From the NCBI GenBank assembly GCA_000002435.2, contig CM018793.1: 64,000 nt of DNA. One strand, given 5' to 3'. Positions 1 through 36,377 of the stretch are shown piece after piece; the first letter of the stretch is position 1; every line of letters starts with the position of its first letter. This DNA is from Giardia intestinalis. Lineage: Eukaryota. The notes beneath the pieces were generated by a model. It worked only from the letters and a program-made list of their open reading frames with translations, searched no databases and had not been told where the DNA came from. The position numbers were made by a program, and so were the translations under genes.

Positions 1-784
1 ACTGGCTATTGTCGACATAAAAGCTGTAAGGAAGTTGATTTTTTGGTTGCGGTAGGAGACCCATGTCCATTTCTGTTCCTGTCTCTGTCACAGATACAGG
101 CAGTGTAGTGGTCGACACGCTTACAGACTTTGCTTTTCCTTTAGATGATGTGCGCTCGTTAGTAGAAGGCCGGGATGCTGCTTCTGCTGGTGCTGGGGGC
201 ATTGACGTGCTTACCGAAACGCTGTCAACGGACGACGTGTTCACCCCAACGGAGCTCACGGCCTTGTCTTGCTCAACTGTAAATAGAGAGCGGCAGTCCT
301 GTGGAATGTCTATTAGCTCTTTGCCCGTTAAATGCGAGGCCTTATAGTACCGTGCTAACTCTATCCAGCTCTGGTTGGGACCCGACCAAGTGGAAAACGT
401 ATCTTTTAGATTGAGGACAATAGAGACGATATTCTCAGAAGAGCCATCTGCTTTCTGTGCAAGCAAAGGAGGACTTCTTTTCATGGGAGACGAGGACGGG
501 CCGTGGAGAAAATAGGAGACAATTACATTAGAGTTGCTGCAAGTATCTAGGAATTCCTGTTCAGGGACATGTATGGAGCGATATTTTCCTCCTTGCTTGC
601 GATACCAAATCTTCATCTGGTCCACAGTTGACACAAAAGACTGTAGTTTCTGCTCGACAGCCTCAATAAACTGCATAAGGCTGTTGAACCATATGCGCCC
701 ACTGAATACGGGCGCCTCGCGCCGTTGCCGGGGGTTGCACACCCTGATGTTGCAGTCTAGGTAGTAGAGCTTGGTCCCCAGCAT
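1..784 (-). CDS. Partial CDS running off the left window edge (N-terminal ~261 codons in window); hypothetical protein
   Basis: By manual scan, the minus-strand frame with codon starts at plus positions congruent to 2 mod 3 has no stop from position 1 to 856. In-frame ATGs (as CAT on plus) lie at 782-784, 674-676, 614-616 and 482-484. Translation from 784 reads MLGTKLYYLDCNIRVCNPRQRREAPVFSGRIWFNSLMQFIEAVEQKLQSFVSTVDQMKIWYR..., which is protein-like. It is absent from the ORF track because its stop lies outside the window. Confidence 0.4.
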   Translation of the reverse strand, partial: MLGTKLYYLDCNIRVCNPRQRREAPVFSGRIWFNSLMQFIEAVEQKLQSFVSTVDQMKIWYRKQGGKYRSIHVPEQEFLDTCSNSNVIVSYFLHGPSSSPMKRSPPLLAQKADGSSENIVSIVLNLKDTFSTWSGPNQSWIELARYYKASHLTGKELIDIPQDCRSLFTVEQDKAVSSVGVNTSSVDSVSVSTSMPPAPAEAASRPSTNERTSSKGKAKSVSVSTTTLPVSVTETGTEMDMGLLPQPKNQLPYSFYVDNSQ

Positions 785-1112
785 TATAATTATTACCGGT
801 GCGAAAGGTAGTGTAGACCAAGCATGACTATATTGACAGCCAGTAAGCGGTGTGTTCTAAAGCACTACCAATGGAGTTACTCCTAGGCAGCTCCTCGAGA
901 TGAGTTGCTTACGTTGTCAGCTACTTCAGAACTTTTCCTTTCAGGATTTGTCGTCCCTATTGGCACGACCTTTCTTGTCTTACCATATGTTCACGGCACC
1001 TCTTTTCAGCACCTTTTTCCACGCCTTAGATACTGACGCCTAACTCCTTAATCTATTAGGAAGTAATTTAAATTCAAATCCACAGGCATTAAAGAAGTGG
1101 CCCTCGAGCCCT

Positions 1113-1850
1113 ATGTCGACAGAGAAAACGTCCCAGGCGTCCAAGGAGTACCAGCTCAAGGAGGCTGATGTGAAGAAGATGCTCGTTGCAACGACTCACC
1201 TTGGCGTCCGCAACATCGATAGGAGGATGCAGTTCTACATCTTCGACAGGCAGAAGGATGGGACCTTTGTCTTCAACCTGCAGAAAGTCTGGGCCAAGAT
1301 CGTCTTCGCAGCACGCATCCTCGTCACCATCGATGACCCCGCCGAGATCGCCGTGGTCGCTAACAGACCCGATGCTCAGCGTGCTATCCTCAAGTTCTGC
1401 AAGTACACGCACGCGACTGCCTTCCCCGGCCGCTTTATCCCTGGCAACTTCACCAATCGTATGAACCCGAACTATTGTGAGCCTCGCCTCCTCCTCGTCA
1501 ACGACCCGGTTGTCGACCGTCAGGCTATTCTCGAGGCGTCCTACGTGAATATTCCGACTATATCGCTTTGCAACTCGGACGCTAACCTGAAGTTCATTGA
1601 CGTGGCAATCCCCTGCAACAACAAGACTCCCATGAGCATCGGGCTTATTTACTGGCTCCTTGCTCGTGAAGTTCTCAGGCTCAAGGGGAGCATCTCAAGG
1701 ACTGAGGAGTGGGATGTGAAGCCCGATCTGTTTGTTGCTCTTCCCGAGGAAATCCCAGACGAGGAGGAGAGTGAGGACTTCTATGATGACGATGAGGAGG
1801 AGGATGAGGAATTTTCCGCCGGCAATGGCAACCTCTTCGACGAGTACTAA
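1113..1850 (+). CDS. RPSA: 40S ribosomal protein SA (uS2 / p40 / laminin-receptor family)
   Basis: Conserved uS2 blocks [35 protein letters not shown] and [18 protein letters not shown], followed by an acidic C-terminal tail. Confidence 0.9.
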
Positions 1851-1920
1851 GGCGGCTCTTGTTAAGCTGAAAGTGTAAACGCTTTGCTCGGTATGCATCC
1901 CTCGTTTCACCAGAGAGGTT

Positions 1921-4900
1921 TCACAACTCCAGGACGGTTCCTTCTGCGATTCCGAGGATTTCGTAAAGTCTGGCTATCATGGCACTACAAGTGTCGTATC
2001 GTGCTTTGATTCTGGCCAAGCTCTTCGTTGCCGTGGCCCGATCTGTGTCTGTGGCCGTTGCACGTATAGAACATGAATCTAGCTGTGCTAGCTTTTCCTC
2101 TGAAATAGGTGACAGCTGAATTCCCTCGGTGGTTCTTAACTGAGAGTGCTCTAGACACGATGGGGTCTGCAAGCGGTCCACTCTCTTCTGTGCATCATGA
2201 AGGTGGAAGGATAAGGTGGTCTGGTCTGCAGCCAGGTGCTCTAGCAAAATAGGGCGATAATTGCTAAGAATAGTAATGGTGGACTTCGGGGGATCGGGTG
2301 CGTTTTTACCAAAGAGGCCAACAGCAAGAGAAATGACAAGCTTGCGCAGATGCCTTTTGGCTTCTTTCTGATACTGCTGCAACTGAGGAATTATATTGGA
2401 CAGATAGACAGCAAGATTGAATATCAACTCTAGTACATTCGGATTGAAATTTTTTAAATACTCTCCACTAAAAATAGACTCCAAGAGTGTAATCAGCTGG
2501 ATCACAATCCCCCCGTTGGCCGGGGTTATCCGCTTGGAGAAACTCTGGGATGCTAACTGGGTGATGGTGCGGGACACCATATCGTCTCTTTGAGATATCG
2601 TCTCAGAAGAGGCGTCGCTGAAGTCAAGCTCTCCGAGGCGGGTAAATAAGGCATTGAGGCTTGAGATGCTATTGAAGCAAATGCGATCTCGTCCTGTTAA
2701 ACCGTCTAAAATGCAATACAGTGTTGTATTTAGCGGCAAACCCAATATAGAATTTGTTTGAATGGCCTCAAGATTTATACGCATGAAGAGGAATCGGATA
2801 ACACGTATCATGTATCCCTGGAGCCTGTTTTGGTTTTGGCAGAACTTGAGGGATAAAAGAAGCAGGTCACCCCCCTGCAAAACTCTCTGTGCATCAGTTG
2901 GCGTCTCGTGACGCCGTAGAAGAGCCATGATTCCGATAACCACCTTGCAGTGCACCTTTGTCGGATAGTTGCTGTGGGATAAAAGGGTGGAAATCAACAT
3001 AGTAGCTTCTCTATCTATTGCAAGCTCTTCCTCGTCGCGAGACAGCTCCTTGCTAATAACATCTGACTCTAGCAGATGACAATAGCTACTGACGGCATGA
3101 GCAAAGAGATCAATAAGCTTCATGGAAAATGCTTTTTCGTCTCCTTGGGCTAAGGTAGCTATGGTTGACTGAAAAGATGGCCACGCCTTGATGCAGATAT
3201 TGACAGCCCGGAGTGACAACTGAAAAATGTTAAGCATATCAGCCACAGGAAGCTCTTCTAAGTAATAAAGGGGAAACTTAGAAAGAAGACAGAGTAGTTC
3301 CATTCCTCTAAGGAGTGTATCTATATCAGCTGCATTATTGAGGAGAAATATGCTGCACGTGAGAAGCTGGTCCATTATGAGGGTCCCCAGAACCTCATCG
3401 AGGGCCGAGTTGAGGAATGAGAATGGCATCTCCTTTGTAATACTCACAGCCCCTGCCTGCGTTGCTGCTGCCAGCTCATTACGTATAAGGGCATGCACAA
3501 AGAGGTATGGTTGAGAGGCGCTAAAGATGTTGTCTTGGGACGGTGCTGTTGGCACTATTGCAACTGCCTGGTGCTGCTTTTTTCTGTGTCCGCGGCAACC
3601 CATAAAAGTATCCGTAATATCTCTCTCGGCGGTGTACTCTTGCTGGGAGACAGGCTCTCCGCTCGCTGTGAAGCTGGTGATGTTTAAAATGTGGAGAAGA
3701 TCAACCGTTACTGCAGAGCTGAAGTAGGAGCACAATTGACAGTCTAACCATGAAGTCGTGCTGAGCCTCGTACCATGCTCATGTGGATCATGAAGGGTTA
3801 GACGCTGGAGAACAGAGAGAGGGATATTGGTTCCATCTTCAGTAAAACATATCTTCAGCGAAGGAATGAACGGAAAGAGCTCGGCAAAATGACCGATAAC
3901 AGGGAATATGCCAAAGAAAGTGGCTAGATATTCGACAGACGTAAACAGCTCTTTCTCGTGCTCAACAGTTGTATCACTTCCGATACCTTCGAGCAAGGTA
4001 AGAACCCTCCTAGACACAGTAATAAACAAGGGTATCTGCGATTGCACCAGTGGAATCAGCACATCGCTATCCTTTGAGGGGACATAGTTTCGACGTAGAA
4101 TCTCCCTCTTCATACCACTAAGTACAGATCCAGCCATCGAGAGAATAGATGTCCATCTGAATCCTGCAGGAGGGTTTTCAGTGTGTGCTAAGATAAAGCT
4201 AATATCTAAATTAAGCTTAGATGGAGACACAGTGGTCCAAAACAGGCGAAACATGGACAAGTACGCAGCGACAAACTCAGATGATTGATTAGACGACTTC
4301 ATGATCTCGTGGAAGCATGACTCCAGGAGTCCATAGAAGTTAACCAATGACGACCCTAGTAATTGGGAGTATGGGGTGTAATTTAAACGATCAGCTCTAG
4401 AACACTCTGCCGCCGCCATGCACTGCTCTGCACCACGAAAATACGAGCTCAGAGCCTTAAGTGCCAGTATCGCAGCTGTATCCCCTGGATGGTCAGAATA
4501 TGGTGTACTAGCTATGACATGCTGATCCGCTTGCAGAGTCTGCCGTTGATGTGGTCTGCTTCGGTGTTCATCATATGCAGATGAGAGCAATGTAATAGTA
4601 AGCACACGACAAGGAAGACTGTCCAGAGAGATATAGCTAGTCCAAAGAAGGGGGCAAATGCTTTGCAGGCGCGTCGGCAGAGTCATATAAAATGAGAACA
4701 CAGTTTTAATCAGAGAGTGATTACTTGTAACGCTGCCATTCTCCATGAAACAGATAGTGGCGAGAGTCTTGAAAAGACAAGCGATCTCATCTAATGGGTT
4801 GGGAAAGCTGAGGATAGCAGCAGACCGATGGTGCAAGATGTTAGTCAATAAATATACAAGACGAGCGGCGATCTTAAAGTGACGAGTAAGAGAATTAGAG

Positions 4901-5211
4901 CACTCCTTGAACAGCATTCTATAACTCTGGACACTGACAAAATTAGGGGTCTTATAGCTTCGTGCAATATAATTAAAGAATGATGTTATGGTATCTCCAC
5001 GAATGGTTTGCTGAGGCAGAATTTGGGAAACAAAAAGATTGATCAGACAGTCTCCCTCACCAGATCCAAAGGTACAGCCATTCTGCAGCACAAGAGCCTC
5101 CGCTTCTAGCACTAGCTTATCATATCTTATCGGCGGCCGCTGGGCCTTAATCCGGCCATCTAAAAATTGATTGAGTGTCACGACCGGCTTCATTTCAATT
5201 TTTATAAGCAC
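1921..5211 (-). CDS. Large hypothetical protein (1096 aa), predicted all-helical, ARM/HEAT-like composition
   Basis: Long uninterrupted ORF with balanced amino-acid composition and no recognisable catalytic motif. The same-region plus ORFs are short antisense shadows. Confidence 0.6.
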   Translation of the reverse strand: MLIKIEMKPVVTLNQFLDGRIKAQRPPIRYDKLVLEAEALVLQNGCTFGSGEGDCLINLFVSQILPQQTIRGDTITSFFNYIARSYKTPNFVSVQSYRMLFKECSNSLTRHFKIAARLVYLLTNILHHRSAAILSFPNPLDEIACLFKTLATICFMENGSVTSNHSLIKTVFSFYMTLPTRLQSICPLLWTSYISLDSLPCRVLTITLLSSAYDEHRSRPHQRQTLQADQHVIASTPYSDHPGDTAAILALKALSSYFRGAEQCMAAAECSRADRLNYTPYSQLLGSSLVNFYGLLESCFHEIMKSSNQSSEFVAAYLSMFRLFWTTVSPSKLNLDISFILAHTENPPAGFRWTSILSMAGSVLSGMKREILRRNYVPSKDSDVLIPLVQSQIPLFITVSRRVLTLLEGIGSDTTVEHEKELFTSVEYLATFFGIFPVIGHFAELFPFIPSLKICFTEDGTNIPLSVLQRLTLHDPHEHGTRLSTTSWLDCQLCSYFSSAVTVDLLHILNITSFTASGEPVSQQEYTAERDITDTFMGCRGHRKKQHQAVAIVPTAPSQDNIFSASQPYLFVHALIRNELAAATQAGAVSITKEMPFSFLNSALDEVLGTLIMDQLLTCSIFLLNNAADIDTLLRGMELLCLLSKFPLYYLEELPVADMLNIFQLSLRAVNICIKAWPSFQSTIATLAQGDEKAFSMKLIDLFAHAVSSYCHLLESDVISKELSRDEEELAIDREATMLISTLLSHSNYPTKVHCKVVIGIMALLRRHETPTDAQRVLQGGDLLLLSLKFCQNQNRLQGYMIRVIRFLFMRINLEAIQTNSILGLPLNTTLYCILDGLTGRDRICFNSISSLNALFTRLGELDFSDASSETISQRDDMVSRTITQLASQSFSKRITPANGGIVIQLITLLESIFSGEYLKNFNPNVLELIFNLAVYLSNIIPQLQQYQKEAKRHLRKLVISLAVGLFGKNAPDPPKSTITILSNYRPILLEHLAADQTTLSFHLHDAQKRVDRLQTPSCLEHSQLRTTEGIQLSPISEEKLAQLDSCSIRATATDTDRATATKSLARIKARYDTCSAMIARLYEILGIAEGTVLEL

Positions 5212-30003: not shown

Positions 30004-33000
30004 TTACAAGTACTTCAAGAAGTTAACTAAGTCACTACGGTCCAATCCCTCGCACTCATGAACCTGTTTAATTGTAAATGATGTTCCAGTACTAGTGGGG
30101 AGGGGGGACCCTATGGATGTGTGTAAATTGCTATGGTTACTCGGAGTTAACTGCCTGAATTGGTCCATGTTTCGTGCATCATCTATCGGTTTGGGTTGAT
30201 CTGATGACCTTACCTGGGTGTCGCGACGAAAGGTTCTAGAGGCAGCACGGGAGCTAGGCCTGGATGATGTGTTACTAGTAGAGACGAAAGAATCTGCCTT
30301 TTGGAAGGCTGGAGATGCCACAATACTAGGTCTGGAAGCTTCTGGAACCACAGGGCCATAGGTGATCTCGAATTCTAGAAGCTCCATGGACGCTTGAGCA
30401 AGAATCTCAGTCAGCGGTAAGTCAAATTGATCCTCGATATAAGAAAGACGCTTTTGAGACGCTTCGATGAACTTCGCTGGGCATGCGTTGAGGGCTGCGC
30501 TTGCAAGATCTTCTGGGTGTTGGGCCTGTTGCTTGTTTAACCTTGAGCGGCTTCTGCTTCGGGGCTCAGAGTGAGATTCCGAAGAGTGAACATTACCGAC
30601 ATTGAGCAGACGTAAGAAGGTAGGATAAGAAGACCGCTCTTCTTGTAAGATAGCCAGCCGAAGAACCGAGTGCTCCAGCACAAGACCTAGAACACTCGAC
30701 AGGGGCTTTTTAAACGAGTGACCAGAATTCGAGCCAAGGACTTGTCTCGAAACTGGTTCTAGATAGTTGCTAGTGTATCTATAGCAAGGATAGAGGTATT
30801 GTGGTATTGTATCAGGCTCCTTTACCCATGCCGGCTGATAAGGAAAGCTACCCAAGTCTTCTAAGTAGCTGCTGGCGTGCTTCCAAAGATTCTCAGGTAT
30901 ACCTGGGTATCGTACCTTTGAAGAACTATAAGAGTTGCCCATAAACTCTTCATAGATTTCTAGCAAAGGAATCCAAAGCGTAGGAGCAGCAGAGAATGCT
31001 TGAGAAATAACTTTGTACATGCAGGCCTGAACCCTGGCGAGATAGTTCCCGATCTTGTGGGTGAATGCTCCTGCGTCTACTTCGGCAATATACGCATCCA
31101 TTGATCCAGTGAATTGCTGAAAGGAAGGACGTGTTAGGAGCTTTATCTGGCGGGGCCAATCTCTTACAGAGGACCTGTGATATATGTAATAATCACGTAG
31201 ACAAGGGTAGGCACTGCTCATGTATGTAACGTGGTTGCTCAGTGGATGGAGACAAGCAGAATTGTCCAGTCTGCCGGCAGAAAGTATGCAGGGGTTGAAG
31301 GCATGAAGATTATTCTTTAATAGTACATCAGATATCTGCATGCCTGTCTCGTCCATCTGAGCAAACGATTGAAGATAGGAAAATTGGATATCAAGTAGGT
31401 TACATACAGGCTGTATGCACCTATAAAATTGCCGAATTGATCGTAAGCTCAGAAGGTTCTTTCGCATCAACTTGCGGTAGTAGCAAGCAGCAAATGCAGA
31501 GCAAGTTAGCTCCTTAGATAGCCAGTCGTAATCGCTTGAAGCAAACATGTGCACGGCACACAGGTATAAGACCGAAAAGAGTGCAAGAGGACTTTCAGAC
31601 TCTAGTTTAGTGTTCGCCTCGTTACAAACAAGTAACAATTTAGATGAGCTAAGGATACCCAGACACTTCTCAATAAGCTGCGACTGTGTAGAGTTACAAG
31701 TGGTTTCCTTTCCACGGAAGTTGGCAGGAACAGAGAAGGTTGGCCCCAAAATGTCAGACATTACGTTGGACAGGAGATAGCCTTGCATGAAACATGTACC
31801 ACAAGTAAAGACCAAAGTAGAAAGGAAATAGAAGAACGAATATATCTGTACGGATAGCAGTGCATGCAAGAGAAGCTGGTTCGTTCGCAAACCTAAGGAG
31901 CTAGTAAAGTTGCTCTCTGAGGGATGCTCCACTTCGTAGGCAGGGTCACCTGGTATCAGAAGTTTCATCTTCTGAAGCTCGTTGTGAAGATACTTTGCTT
32001 GTTCTTCTGATACGAGATAAGATAGAATTGCTGAATAATCAACCTCTACTGCAAGAAGCTGGCAAAGATAGGTGTCATAGAGGTATATTGTTTGAAATCG
32101 TTTCCGAACCTCTGCACACCCGTTTGCCCACAGCTTCTCCAACTGAACTTCTTGGTCACAAAGATTAATGGCAAGGAACGCACAGTCGCAAATGTATATG
32201 CCCTGATCTGCTGTAGGGAGCTGTACAAATCGCTTCGACGAGCAATCAAGCAGTGTCCCAGATCTGTGTAGGTTCAATTCCTTGAGAATAGTAATATATG
32301 CCACTTTCTCCGTCGTTACTGGAATCAAGTGAGTTAATTCGGAAAAAAGTCCTGTAATGGTACAACCATCTGAAGCTTCAGTGTCCCAACTTGTGAGTTG
32401 AGATAAAGTTAGACATGAGGACAAATCAGGATTATTGGTTGAATGTGTGTTCTCACAAGAATGAGTACTATGTTCTATCGATACAGTGCCAGCGTCATAG
32501 GACAAGACCCGTGACTTTGCTTTAAAGATAGACTTGGGAATAAAGCGCTCTGTGGTATGACGGAGTAATTGTCTGGACTGATAGATAAGGGCATCAGATG
32601 AGGAGCATGAGATCACTGGGGGATCATCGTTTGAGTTGGAGTTAGCACAGATAATGTCAAACAAAGACGACTGGACCGGATATGCGCGGTCAGAGCCGGT
32701 GTTGCTATCTACTTCATCGGTACCCGTGCAGGTAGGTGTAGGAATTCGATGCACGGCTCCAGAGCGGAACAATGTCGCCATGTCAATACTCAGAAGCGTG
32801 TCTGTGCCCATGAATACCGTGGTGAAGCCTCCCACTTGAGTACATGAAACTAGCGTTGTCTTGGCCACACCTGCTACAGGGTCAGGGACTACCCAAATGA
32901 CTAGGTTAGACGTGAAAAATAACTGAGTAGAGCACACCGAAAAGAAAGAATGACGGTAAGTGTTTCGAACCGCAACTTTAAACGTGAGAGAGTCGAGGAG

Positions 33001-34530
33001 AACAGAGGAGTTTAGCTCGCTAGGTGAAAGACCATGCAAGATGTGACTAGAAATAGCAGCTGCAAACAGGCGGAAGTTAGTGGTGTCGACACGCTTCGTG
33101 ACACCAGCTTCTAGCTTGTCCTCGTCGCGCCCTGTCATCTTGAGTCCTTCCATATTCGTGTCTATCCGTGCACTTGTGTGATATATTGCTTCCGTAAATG
33201 GTGAAACAAGAGTAAGCATAGCTGTCATTGATGCCCCGCTATCTGCTGCAATGTCTGTGGGCACAGTTGAAGAAAGAAAGTACTCAAATGCAATAATTGG
33301 AAGTGCTGATGAAATGCTACCGAACGAGACAGCTATTGTGCATGGAATCAATGCACTAAATGCTTCTGCCACAATGAGGGGATAGTCTGGGAATGGTCCC
33401 ACGCAAAGGGATGTGATATGTCTTAAACTGTGTGTAGATGGGCCAGGAACTTGTGGGACAGAAAGATTACTTGGCTGGGAAGTGCTTAGACCAGAATGCC
33501 GACTAACTGCCTTGCGAAAGTCTTTATAAATGGACACCGTCAGGTTTGCTGTTCCAATGCTGGCCATTTGAGAGGCAATCCGTTGCCTCGTTATAACAAC
33601 CAAGTCCCCGGTTGTGGGAAGAAACTGCCTAAAGGCCACAGGCTCTCGCATGTGTGAAGCCAGCGTGCCTAGGTGCTTGGCCTCGTGCCAGATAATGAAT
33701 GACTTCACCTGATCAGTAAAGGATTTATTGAAGCGAATATTTATTTGCTCGATTGTCGTCCGAGATACTGTCGTGTCTGTTGGCCTGTGATAAATACAGT
33801 TAGTGAAGGGCAGAGTATATTCATCTAAAATGGCTCCTGATACATAAGATATCAAAAAGTATGAAAGTGAACTCTTCTCCATGGTAATGCTGATGTTATC
33901 AATTTGAAGGACAGAAGAGTGGTACGGAGTTGGGACATCAGAGACAAGATCTGGACTGTGCTTCTGTTCACCAGACAAAAAGTACCCTATCACGGGGTCT
34001 GGGGCATTGGACACCAAACGGTGCATCCCATACATGCCCATGATTGGCTCAACATCACAACCTGCCACAAAAGACGGCCACGAGCCACCATCTTGATAGC
34101 TTTGTGACGCAAGAGAGACTAGTATAGTGTCATGCAAGCGACGGGAGCGCTTGATTGGTTGATTGGTAAAGGGAGAGACAATAGACACAAACGTCATCAA
34201 TAAGAAGGCCCCGGAACCAGGCGAAAGAGCACAGTGATAGACGATGGCAGCCGCCGATATTTTAAAGATGGGAATAGAGCTTTGAATTGCATCGTTTGTG
34301 GAATCTGAAATGGATTGCAGGTAGATCTCTGAAAGAACAGACGAAGGCCCACTGAGTGTCTCCAGAACAACCAGCATCCTTCCATCTGGTGCCTGTCCGA
34401 CAAGGCGGCAGGAAGAGGCCGACTTGGAACGAGTTGGAGACGGCAAACACCAATTGGCGCCACCGGTCTCTATATGCTTTATGGCTTCATTGTGAACAAA
34501 TCTTTTCAATGTGCTGCGTTTCAACAGCAT
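30004..34530 (-). CDS. Very large hypothetical protein (1508 aa)
   Basis: Uninterrupted 4.5-kb ORF with no recognisable motif. Its start lies 54 bp from the divergent HCMP at 34584. Confidence 0.6.
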   Translation of the reverse strand: MLLKRSTLKRFVHNEAIKHIETGGANWCLPSPTRSKSASSCRLVGQAPDGRMLVVLETLSGPSSVLSEIYLQSISDSTNDAIQSSIPIFKISAAAIVYHCALSPGSGAFLLMTFVSIVSPFTNQPIKRSRRLHDTILVSLASQSYQDGGSWPSFVAGCDVEPIMGMYGMHRLVSNAPDPVIGYFLSGEQKHSPDLVSDVPTPYHSSVLQIDNISITMEKSSLSYFLISYVSGAILDEYTLPFTNCIYHRPTDTTVSRTTIEQINIRFNKSFTDQVKSFIIWHEAKHLGTLASHMREPVAFRQFLPTTGDLVVITRQRIASQMASIGTANLTVSIYKDFRKAVSRHSGLSTSQPSNLSVPQVPGPSTHSLRHITSLCVGPFPDYPLIVAEAFSALIPCTIAVSFGSISSALPIIAFEYFLSSTVPTDIAADSGASMTAMLTLVSPFTEAIYHTSARIDTNMEGLKMTGRDEDKLEAGVTKRVDTTNFRLFAAAISSHILHGLSPSELNSSVLLDSLTFKVAVRNTYRHSFFSVCSTQLFFTSNLVIWVVPDPVAGVAKTTLVSCTQVGGFTTVFMGTDTLLSIDMATLFRSGAVHRIPTPTCTGTDEVDSNTGSDRAYPVQSSLFDIICANSNSNDDPPVISCSSSDALIYQSRQLLRHTTERFIPKSIFKAKSRVLSYDAGTVSIEHSTHSCENTHSTNNPDLSSCLTLSQLTSWDTEASDGCTITGLFSELTHLIPVTTEKVAYITILKELNLHRSGTLLDCSSKRFVQLPTADQGIYICDCAFLAINLCDQEVQLEKLWANGCAEVRKRFQTIYLYDTYLCQLLAVEVDYSAILSYLVSEEQAKYLHNELQKMKLLIPGDPAYEVEHPSESNFTSSLGLRTNQLLLHALLSVQIYSFFYFLSTLVFTCGTCFMQGYLLSNVMSDILGPTFSVPANFRGKETTCNSTQSQLIEKCLGILSSSKLLLVCNEANTKLESESPLALFSVLYLCAVHMFASSDYDWLSKELTCSAFAACYYRKLMRKNLLSLRSIRQFYRCIQPVCNLLDIQFSYLQSFAQMDETGMQISDVLLKNNLHAFNPCILSAGRLDNSACLHPLSNHVTYMSSAYPCLRDYYIYHRSSVRDWPRQIKLLTRPSFQQFTGSMDAYIAEVDAGAFTHKIGNYLARVQACMYKVISQAFSAAPTLWIPLLEIYEEFMGNSYSSSKVRYPGIPENLWKHASSYLEDLGSFPYQPAWVKEPDTIPQYLYPCYRYTSNYLEPVSRQVLGSNSGHSFKKPLSSVLGLVLEHSVLRLAILQEERSSYPTFLRLLNVGNVHSSESHSEPRSRSRSRLNKQQAQHPEDLASAALNACPAKFIEASQKRLSYIEDQFDLPLTEILAQASMELLEFEITYGPVVPEASRPSIVASPAFQKADSFVSTSNTSSRPSSRAASRTFRRDTQVRSSDQPKPIDDARNMDQFRQLTPSNHSNLHTSIGSPLPTSTGTSFTIKQVHECEGLDRSDLVNFLKYL

Positions 34531-34583
34531 CGTGTGCAGCTGGACGACCCCGCGCCGTATCCGGAAGGGCTAGTTTTAAAATT

Positions 34584-36377
34584 ATGTGGCTAGTCTGGCT
34601 CGGACAGCTCATAAGTCTCAGTTATTCTTTTTGTCCCCTGCGCAATTGCATAAAGTGTCCAGTCACTGATGCTGATAAGCTTTGCGAAGTTTGTAAGCTT
34701 GGATATTATCTCGATTCCACAGATAACGTTTGCTTGCCTTGCTCCACGACCGTAACACACTGTAGCAGGTGTAGCGCTGACGGCAAAAGCTGCTATTCAT
34801 GTGCTGATGGTCGTGTACTGAAAACAGTTTCTACAGGGCAGTCGACCACACAGGAATGTTTCCTTAGTCAGGAACAGCTCTGTAGTGCAGTGTCCAACTG
34901 TGGTCTTTGCACCGTCACTGATAGCACTACTACTTGTGATGCATGTCTGCCAGGATACTTCCTGCAAAGCTCTTCAAATGCTTGTGTGAAATGCGCTGAG
35001 AATTGCGTCTATTGTTCAGCAGAGTCCACCTGCACATCTTGTAAGGATAACTATACACTTTCATCACCGCTGCCTTCTACCTGCACTGCATGCACTCTTC
35101 AGAACTGTGACCTGTGCTATGATGGTTCTATTTGTGACACTTGCTCTAGTGGATTCCACCACAACGATGCTGGAACTTGTGTGCAGAATACTAACTGTGA
35201 TGATGTTGGATGTAAGGAATGCAACGGTGGACATGCTCCGTGTACGAAGTGCTACAAAGGATATTACCTTACAGGTCAGACCTGCACTCTATGCAGCGTC
35301 GACATCTCCAACTGTATCCTCTGCGATTCTCCATCTGCAGGAGCCTCTTCCCGTGCTACTCTGTCATGCACTCGGTGCCAACAGGGTTATCACTTGAGGG
35401 ATAATGCCTGTGAGTCCTGCTCAGATATAACTAATCACTGCCAGAGCTGCCCTAGTGGAATTTGTACGTCCTGTGAGCCAGGGTACCAGTTGATGAACTA
35501 CCCGCGCTACTGCAAAGAGAAAACAACAACAGATTGCTCAAATCTCAGCAACTGCCTGGCTTGCACGTCTGATTCTCGATGCATTAGCTGTGCGCCTGGG
35601 TACTCACCAACAAATGGTGTTTGTGAGCTTTACACTGGCTGCGCCGTTGCCAACTGCGGGATCTGCAGGAGCGATCAATACACCTGTGACTTCTGCGTTC
35701 GTGGATACAGACTAGAGAATAACCAGTGTATATCGAAGTGTACAGATAGAAACTGTCATACCTGTAGCCCTGGGGCAGACGGACAGGAGGTCTGCAAACA
35801 GTGCATGCCTGGATACATCCTTGATACAGACAGTAGCGTGTGCACCTCATGCGGCGTTGAAAAGTGCGTTTCGTGTTCTGTATCAACAGAAGCAAAGAAG
35901 GCGTCAACTAGCCATGCCTATAGGAGCTTCTCTAGGTGGTTACAGCAGTTCCAATCCAAGAGAGCTGCAACCGCTCCATCTAACCGGATAGAGGATTGGG
36001 AACATAAGTTGAAAGCAATAGCACAGTATTATAGACTCACTGATATCCAATTGAATAACCTGCGGGTTGTTCTCTATGATTACTTTACAAATGGATCCAT
36101 TTCTATGCATTTATTCAACGACTCCGACCTTATTTTGAAAGAAATATCTAAGGTATATACCAGCGGCAAACAAGGAGTAACGGAGGCCAGCCTATCTAGT
36201 GCCAAGCTGTTTGTCTGCTCAAAGTGTGAAGACGGGTATACCCTAACGCACAATACCTGTGTGAAGCAAACCCTGACTGCAAGTAATATTGTGGGCATAA
36301 GTGCCGGTGTCATTTTAGCAGTCGGGATAATTGCTGGGGCAATAGTCATGACAGTAACTTCAAAGAAGCACAAGTAG
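34584..36377 (+). CDS. High-cysteine membrane protein (HCMP) with a cysteine-free insert before the TM
   Basis: Signal-like MWLVWLGQLISLSYS. About 20 CXXC modules. A roughly 110-aa Cys-free segment (aa ~505-615 of the track ORF) precedes a final CSKCEDGYTLTHNTC module and TM IVGISAGVILAVGIIAGAIVMTV. The track ORF begins at 34356, inside the neighbouring gene. Met 34584 is preferred. Confidence 0.75.
   Translation: MWLVWLGQLISLSYSFCPLRNCIKCPVTDADKLCEVCKLGYYLDSTDNVCLPCSTTVTHCSRCSADGKSCYSCADGRVLKTVSTGQSTTQECFLSQEQLCSAVSNCGLCTVTDSTTTCDACLPGYFLQSSSNACVKCAENCVYCSAESTCTSCKDNYTLSSPLPSTCTACTLQNCDLCYDGSICDTCSSGFHHNDAGTCVQNTNCDDVGCKECNGGHAPCTKCYKGYYLTGQTCTLCSVDISNCILCDSPSAGASSRATLSCTRCQQGYHLRDNACESCSDITNHCQSCPSGICTSCEPGYQLMNYPRYCKEKTTTDCSNLSNCLACTSDSRCISCAPGYSPTNGVCELYTGCAVANCGICRSDQYTCDFCVRGYRLENNQCISKCTDRNCHTCSPGADGQEVCKQCMPGYILDTDSSVCTSCGVEKCVSCSVSTEAKKASTSHAYRSFSRWLQQFQSKRAATAPSNRIEDWEHKLKAIAQYYRLTDIQLNNLRVVLYDYFTNGSISMHLFNDSDLILKEISKVYTSGKQGVTEASLSSAKLFVCSKCEDGYTLTHNTCVKQTLTASNIVGISAGVILAVGIIAGAIVMTVTSKKHK

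Follow-up and report, generated by a model that had tools for sequence, protein, structure and literature searches.

An open minus-strand frame at the left edge of a 64-kb Giardia intestinalis window belongs to the annotated gene GL50803_7765, whose product carries a predicted β-grasp domain

Identification of GL50803_7765

The open minus-strand frame at the left edge of a 64,000-nucleotide (nt) stretch of Giardia intestinalis DNA (contig CM018793.1 of GenBank assembly GCA_000002435.2; this whole stretch is called the window) was identified as part of the gene GL50803_7765. Positions 2-784 hold the 5′ three-quarters of this real, transcribed, protein-coding gene, at a probability that we put at 0.97 or above. 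The gene is ordinary and already annotated, and we regard this explanation as very probable. The window is of the G. duodenalis assemblage A (WB-like) type. Translation from the ATG at position 784 gave a sequence in which 261 of 261 residues were identical to GL50803_7765 (GL50803_007765 / XP_001707614.1 / A8BE88, P0006, WB clone C6), a protein of 338 amino acids (aa) and about 37 kDa annotated as “hypothetical protein”. Window positions 1-3784 were base-identical to the WB-type assembly L005, which holds the complete coding sequence of 1017 nt (338 codons plus TAA). The window edge cuts off the last 77 codons (262-338) and the TAA; extended leftward, the frame did not end within a few codons but ran through all 77 of them. 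The protein identity and the DNA match to L005 bear out the first-pass annotation of the window, which had proposed a minus-strand gene running off the left edge, and no evidence against the identity with GL50803_7765 was found. A search with the fragment matched five protein clusters, DHA2_152768 at 99%, GLP15_4610 at 88% and three more at 66%, 56% and 53%, of which the 66% cluster was that of assemblage B (GL50581_3215, GSB_153257 and QR46_2419) and the 99% cluster also held the WB protein. The gene and the signals at its 5′ end are as follows.

2..784, minus strand: codons 1-261 of the 338 of GL50803_7765, base 1 being the first base of codon 262; 100% protein identity, DNA as in L005.
785..794, minus strand: AT-rich element AATAATTATA, abutting ATG 784; likely initiator or core promoter, conserved in six lineages.
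857..859, minus strand: TAG, the upstream in-frame closing stop, 5′ of the start codon, found by minus-strand translation.

Translation of positions 1-856 (read 856 to 2 on the minus strand) gave 285 sense codons without a stop, in agreement with the stop-free run of 856 nt first reported, while the other two minus frames contained many stops each. In-frame ATG codons were located at 784, 676, 616, 484, 202, 70 and 64 (position of the A), the first four being those already listed by the first-pass annotation. The one at 784 was the first to follow the upstream stop, with none between the TAG at 857-859 and 784. The GC content of 1-856 was 48.5%; base composition gave a stop probability of 0.0488 per codon and hence a probability of 6.5e-7 for 285 open codons. 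The earlier estimate of about 1e-6 for a chance occurrence therefore held per frame and was too generous per window. When the whole 64-kb window was shuffled 200 times, no run of 285 open codons arose; the longest, in one shuffle, was 283. Judged per window, the length of the frame by itself supports it only at about the <0.5% level, which is suggestive and not decisive, so that the reality of the frame rests on comparative evidence. Over the whole window, 25 stretches of 285 codons or more are open, which is typical of the dense, intron-poor Giardia genome.

The program-made list of open reading frames (ORFs) left out ORFs running past either end of the sequence. GL50803_7765 was absent from it because its stop codon falls outside the window, just as the first-pass annotation had reasoned. 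Its description as an unlisted gene was correct for this six-frame list and incorrect for the public reference genomes, where the gene is already annotated.

Selection on the minus-strand frame

The locus was compared in six lineages: WB, DH (A2), P15 (E), assemblage B, X4 and X5. The adjacent gene for ribosomal protein SA/uS2 served as a measure of relatedness, its product being 97-98% identical to that of WB in X4 and X5, 97% in assemblage B and 66% in G. muris. With their 97-98% identity in uS2, X4 and X5 are also counted within the G. duodenalis complex. All six lineages had an intact ORF of 329-339 aa. Wherever the locus reached far enough (L012 does not), the uS2 gene lay divergent upstream, and a gene of 770-800 aa lay convergent downstream in all of the loci.

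The ratio of nonsynonymous to synonymous substitution rates (dN/dS, Nei-Gojobori) was 0.09-0.29 for the whole gene (0.135 between WB and P15, 0.146 between WB and assemblage B) and 0.13-0.25 for the part inside the window. The constraint was unevenly distributed. Against P15 and assemblage B, dN/dS was 0.04-0.06 for residues 1-96 and 0.03-0.06 for the C-terminal 35 aa (residues 304-338). Higher values were obtained for residues 97-185 (0.14-0.27) and 186-303 (0.19-0.42). Five orthologues, when aligned, showed the same pattern, with residues 1-96 highly conserved and a C-terminal block, Q304-E336 (QSDSLVHLTIPKVSAKAAYIITGVVYADIQARE), almost invariant. The other five frames contained only short open stretches, which were unconserved and interrupted in the orthologues. 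These comparisons indicate that purifying selection acts on the proposed minus frame and on no other frame. They also indicate that the GL50803_7765 family evolves fast, since protein identity fell to 55% between assemblages whose uS2 was 98% identical.

One further ORF overlaps the gene on the opposite strand.

63..347, plus strand: ORF of 94 aa, an antisense shadow and not a gene; stops in orthologues.

It could be argued that the roles are reversed, with this ORF as the true gene and the long minus frame as its stop-free shadow, since it was the sole listed ORF in 1-860 and begins with an ATG. In the same register, however, it was interrupted at four of the five orthologous loci, by two stops in P15, two in assemblage B, four in X4 and five in X5, whereas the minus ORF was intact in all six lineages with a dN/dS of about 0.13. 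No database protein corresponds to the plus ORF, and GenBank and all gene callers annotate the minus-strand gene. Because it is broken by stops in the orthologues, the plus ORF is read as a shadow, which the first-pass annotation had suspected; that it is the real gene is next to impossible.

Translation start and transcript ends

All orthologues started at the same Met in the alignment. The sequence AATAATT(A)TAATG, which comprises the 10 bases of the AT-rich element followed by the ATG, had lost one base in assemblage B and was otherwise invariant in the six lineages. Upstream of the element, their sequences could barely be aligned. Giardia genes have AT-rich initiator elements and very short 5′ untranslated regions, and the sequence AATAATTATA is likely to be an initiator or core promoter of this kind. 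This invariant element abuts the ATG at 784 and marks position 784 as the true start.

A start at Met37 (ATG 676), which would yield a 302-aa product with an incomplete β-grasp domain, was considered because 302-aa members beginning with MQFIEAVEQ were found in the cluster (P0007, P0009, P0010 and P0013). Apart from the shorter N-terminus, these calls did not differ in sequence, and they look like the work of automatic gene callers that picked a later ATG. Residues 1-36, which such a product would lack, were under strong purifying selection (Y8, L9, D10, C11, I13, R14, N17, R22, A24, P25 and F27-F33 were invariant) and supply the first two strands of the predicted domain, and the invariant AT-rich element lies at ATG 784 and not at 676. 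Translation from Met37 is therefore very unlikely. The 302-aa call was seen in more than 120 public contigs, and a frameshifted 271-aa call (P0011) also occurs at the GL50803_7765 locus.

At the other end of the gene, just left of the window (L005 4015-4037), the stop codons of GL50803_7765 and of the convergent gene, which encodes 779 aa, were 17 nt apart; the distance was 9-28 nt in the other lineages. With the convergent stops so close, the 3′ untranslated regions must overlap or be extremely short.

Expression of the gene

Transcripts of GL50803_7765 were found in two independent RNA sequencing (RNA-seq) studies. In Table S1 of PMC8700996 (encystation, three replicates), the mRNA stood at 6.5-6.9 log2 counts per million (CPM) in trophozoites, increased steadily to 7.2-7.5 log2 CPM at 28 h of encystation and was at 5.7-6.6 in cysts. 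The changes were mild, about +0.6 log2 over the 28 h and a drop of about 1-1.4 log2 in cysts. The tables of PMC8866875 gave 6.5-7.5 log2 CPM. The adjacent uS2 gene reached about 11.5-12.5 in the same tables of both studies.

The RNA-seq libraries that show the transcript are not established as strand-specific. In the combined transcriptome and proteome table of PMC8866875, GL50803_7765 has NA entries in the columns that seem to hold protein values. Evidence at the protein level was not found in the accessible material, which included the supplements of one proteome paper, where the gene is also absent. In none of the six lineages did the first 60 nt past the stop contain a polyadenylation signal of the AGTRAA type; for WB, the nearest match was AAGTAGAG. 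The literature yielded no mention of GL50803_7765 or GL50803_007765 in a main text, and the gene is not listed in the accessible supplements of the structure-based Giardia annotation paper PMC6312909.

A rival reading makes the minus frame a chance ORF or a decaying pseudogene without a functional protein. This reading would account for the missing protein family match and the missing proteomic values in one dataset, for the homologue that could not be detected outside the G. duodenalis complex, and for the single shuffle of 200 that reached 283 open codons. It does not account for an ORF whose length and both ends were kept in six lineages while synonymous divergence rose up to saturation, or for dN/dS values of 0.03-0.15 in the two terminal modules. 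The conserved start context, the mRNA seen in two independent studies and the confident AlphaFold2 (AF2) model for part of the product also stand against it, and we regard it as extremely unlikely.

Predicted structure of the product

The protein alignment and the AF2 model were built on five orthologous sequences. The segments of the protein that lie within the window are the following.

500..775, minus strand: N-terminal β-grasp domain, PB1/CIDE-N-like, residues 4-95, from the AF2 model; isoelectric point 9.15 for residues 1-96.
230..457, minus strand: conserved middle, residues 110-185, with many invariant columns and no confident fold; dN/dS 0.14-0.27 (residues 97-185), predicted local distance difference test score (pLDDT) <50.
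2..229, minus strand: in-window part (residues 186-261) of the variable Ser/Thr/Val/Pro-rich region 186-303, with indels and low identity; dN/dS 0.19-0.42.

In the full-length model only residues 4-95 were confident, with block-mean pLDDT values of 74-88 for residues 11-90. Strands were predicted at residues 7-17, 22-33, 59-63 and 87-92 and helices at 36-47 and 75-82. A model of the domain alone agreed in topology and added a short strand at 68-70, so that the predicted order is S1-S2-H-S3-S4-h-S5. This is the order of the PB1/RA/CAD-DCX class of β-grasp folds (Burroughs et al. 2007, PMC1949818). The nearest solved structures were PB1 and CIDE-N modules, and the best Foldseek template modelling (TM) scores, 0.54 and 0.61, were to the PB1 domain of Cdc24p. 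For the predicted model, the assignment of residues 4-95 to the β-grasp fold is solid, and a PB1/CIDE-N-like sub-family is a lean and not a result. The region 186-303 was composed of 14% Ser, 10% Pro, 10% Val and 9% Thr, had a pLDDT of about 25, and is probably a disordered linker to the C-terminal block.

Several findings weigh against the PB1-type mechanism proposed below. About 70% of the protein had a pLDDT below 50, the domain-only model reached a mean of 68.7, and the alignment behind the model held no more than the five sequences. Foldseek searches of the Protein Data Bank (PDB) with the full-length and domain-only models gave no match at E ≤ 1e-3. A Pfam scan of the fragment and the five orthologues gave no PB1 or CIDE-N match, even at E ≤ 10. 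A profile search of PDB sequences returned nothing except a chance match to a ribosome hibernation factor (E 0.76).

The sequence searches gave the same picture for the family as a whole. The Pfam scans of the fragment and the five orthologues yielded no credible family, and the best matches (SprA-related, KCNQ2_u3 and Rer1, E 0.1-0.8) all fell in low-complexity sequence. This agrees with the early remark that the translation resembled no recognised family. An exhaustive HMMER profile search, which covered 1.84 billion representative proteins, recovered the family's own cluster and nothing outside the G. duodenalis complex. By sequence, the GL50803_7765 family is recognisable only within that complex. 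Because the profile tests fail, GL50803_7765 is not demonstrably a member of Pfam PB1 (PF00564) or CIDE-N (PF02017) at the level of sequence.

The position of the PB1 contact motif was inspected in the alignment. Type A PB1 domains carry an acidic OPCA motif, YxDEDGDx8[DE]x[DE], on the β3-β4-α2 segment. The corresponding residues 61-80 of GL50803_7765 are YRKQGGKYRSIHVPEQEFLD. They begin with the basic Y61-R-K-Q-G-G-K, in which the invariant R62 and K63 take the place of the first acidic cluster, and E75, E77 and D80 are the only acidic residues left, so that the type A pattern is absent. A candidate for the β1 lysine of type B domains, K5, precedes strand 1 and was present in four of the five sequences (Gly in P0005); R14 on strand 1 was invariant.

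Two other roles for the ends of the protein were rejected. A tail anchor or transmembrane C-terminus does not fit the uncharged stretch AAYIITGVVYA, which is only 11 residues long. A conjugatable ubiquitin-like modifier does not fit a β-grasp domain that is N-terminal and followed by about 240 residues, with a C-terminus of ...QAREEV.

Possible function

As judged by the sequence, GL50803_7765 has no recognisable catalytic domain. A lineage-restricted adaptor or scaffold with a PB1-type contact is possible, and we hold this idea weakly. In such a protein, the N-terminal PB1-like β-grasp domain would make homotypic or heterotypic protein-protein contacts. Since basic residues replace the acidic OPCA cluster, the contact would most likely be made through a basic face, like that of type B PB1 domains, and would need an acidic partner. 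The flexible, fast-evolving Ser/Thr-rich linker would present the constrained C-terminal peptide, which may engage another binding partner or pack back against the β-grasp domain.

Alternatively, the N-terminal domain may be a generic ubiquitin-like or cytoskeleton-linked β-grasp of the kind found in tubulin-cofactor ubiquitin-like domains, doublecortin or the BILBO1 N-terminus. In that case the protein would be anchored to the proteasome or p97, or to the microtubule structures of Giardia, and would not be an oligomerising adaptor of the PB1 type. We consider this only slightly less likely than the PB1-type adaptor, and the probability left beyond it and the PB1-type adaptor falls to other functions. 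A role like that of the autophagy receptors p62 and NBR1 was rejected as unlikely because Giardia lacks the autophagy (ATG) machinery and its genes (PMC9582228).

In a bolder form of the adaptor idea, GL50803_7765 would be the first known representative of a family of PB1/CIDE-N-like scaffolds that evolves fast and is restricted to Giardia. Here the basic β-grasp domain without an OPCA motif would polymerise or dock on an acidic partner, the 33-residue C-terminal peptide would recruit cargo, and a 443-aa gene of G. muris would be a diverged orthologue. This is doubtful; if true, it would provide the first PB1-type assembly module known in a diplomonad. To our knowledge none has been described in this group before, and the usual PB1 polarity proteins and autophagy receptors are absent.

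The gene drew attention through the window boundary, as a public-genome gene that the ORF list had left out, and its identification adds little to biology: GL50803_7765 joins the large set of “hypothetical proteins” of Giardia. What is new here is minor, namely the support for the start codon, the test of the shadow ORF, the β-grasp assignment, the conserved C-terminal peptide and the evidence of fast evolution. If the adaptor reading is true, it would be a modest gain for the cell biology of Giardia and would involve no new kind of system.

Surroundings of the gene in the window

The genes next to GL50803_7765 in the window are the uS2 gene and large intronless ORFs, some of them with ankyrin repeats.

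795..1112, no strand: intergenic region between GL50803_7765 and the divergent uS2 gene, poorly conserved apart from the AT-rich element.
1113-1850, plus strand: gene for ribosomal protein SA/uS2 (Pfam PF00318).

Beyond uS2, positions 1921-5211 on the minus strand hold a 1096-aa ORF with a sub-threshold match to DUF4042 (E 1.3e-4, below the gathering score). G. muris (995 aa, 27% identity) and a diplomonad-like contig, L017 (1055 aa, 24%), have the same gene beside uS2. L017 is a 67-kb contig from Logan SRR31929897, and its uS2 was 61% identical to that of Giardia. Upstream of this uS2 there was no counterpart of GL50803_7765 and instead an ORF of 1120 aa on the same strand. Because G. muris and L017 both keep uS2 next to the 1096-aa gene, this arrangement predates the pairing of uS2 with GL50803_7765. 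Further along the window, the ORFs at 30004-34530 (minus strand) and 34356-36377 (plus strand, GTG start) overlap by about 175 nt. Scans of the whole 64-kb window with Rfam (gathering threshold) and for tRNAs gave no match.

Comparison with known systems

An orthologue in G. muris was sought by its position beside uS2. In G. muris (CM016927.1, L015 6608-7939, minus strand), a 443-aa gene without a Pfam domain lies divergent from uS2. It resembles GL50803_7765 in being divergent upstream of uS2, with the homologue of the 1096-aa gene and then an ankyrin-repeat protein beyond uS2. By eye, its product also has a similar layout, in which the N-terminus is structured, the long middle is of low complexity, and the C-terminus is short and hydrophobic. 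The two proteins showed no significant similarity in direct comparison: hhalign gave an E of 0.074 with a probability below 1%, and the HMMER scores lay in the shuffled range (665 and 337 of 2000 shuffles scored as high). Loss of detectable similarity would be expected for a true orthologue in G. muris, because the adjacent 1096-aa protein itself retains only 27% identity there. The 443-aa gene may therefore be a positional orthologue diverged beyond recognition, and homology is not claimed.

Among characterised proteins, the PB1 domains (PF00564: Cdc24p, PKC zeta/iota, Par6, p62/SQSTM1, NBR1 and plant ARF/Aux-IAA) are alike in the predicted topology and provide the closest structures, without a match in sequence. 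The CIDE-N or CAD domains (PF02017: DFF40/DFF45, CIDE-A, FSP27 and Drosophila Drep) likewise gave no profile match, and the nuclease or lipid-droplet domain of such proteins is absent in GL50803_7765. The CIDE-N family is, as far as we know, restricted to animals. The systems that correspond to the window gene in full are its own orthologues. WB, DHA2_152768, GLP15_4610 and assemblage B share the same flanking genes in the same orientation, and all their database entries read “hypothetical protein”. From the WB gene GL50803_7765 itself, the copy in the window differs only in that its last 77 codons lie outside.
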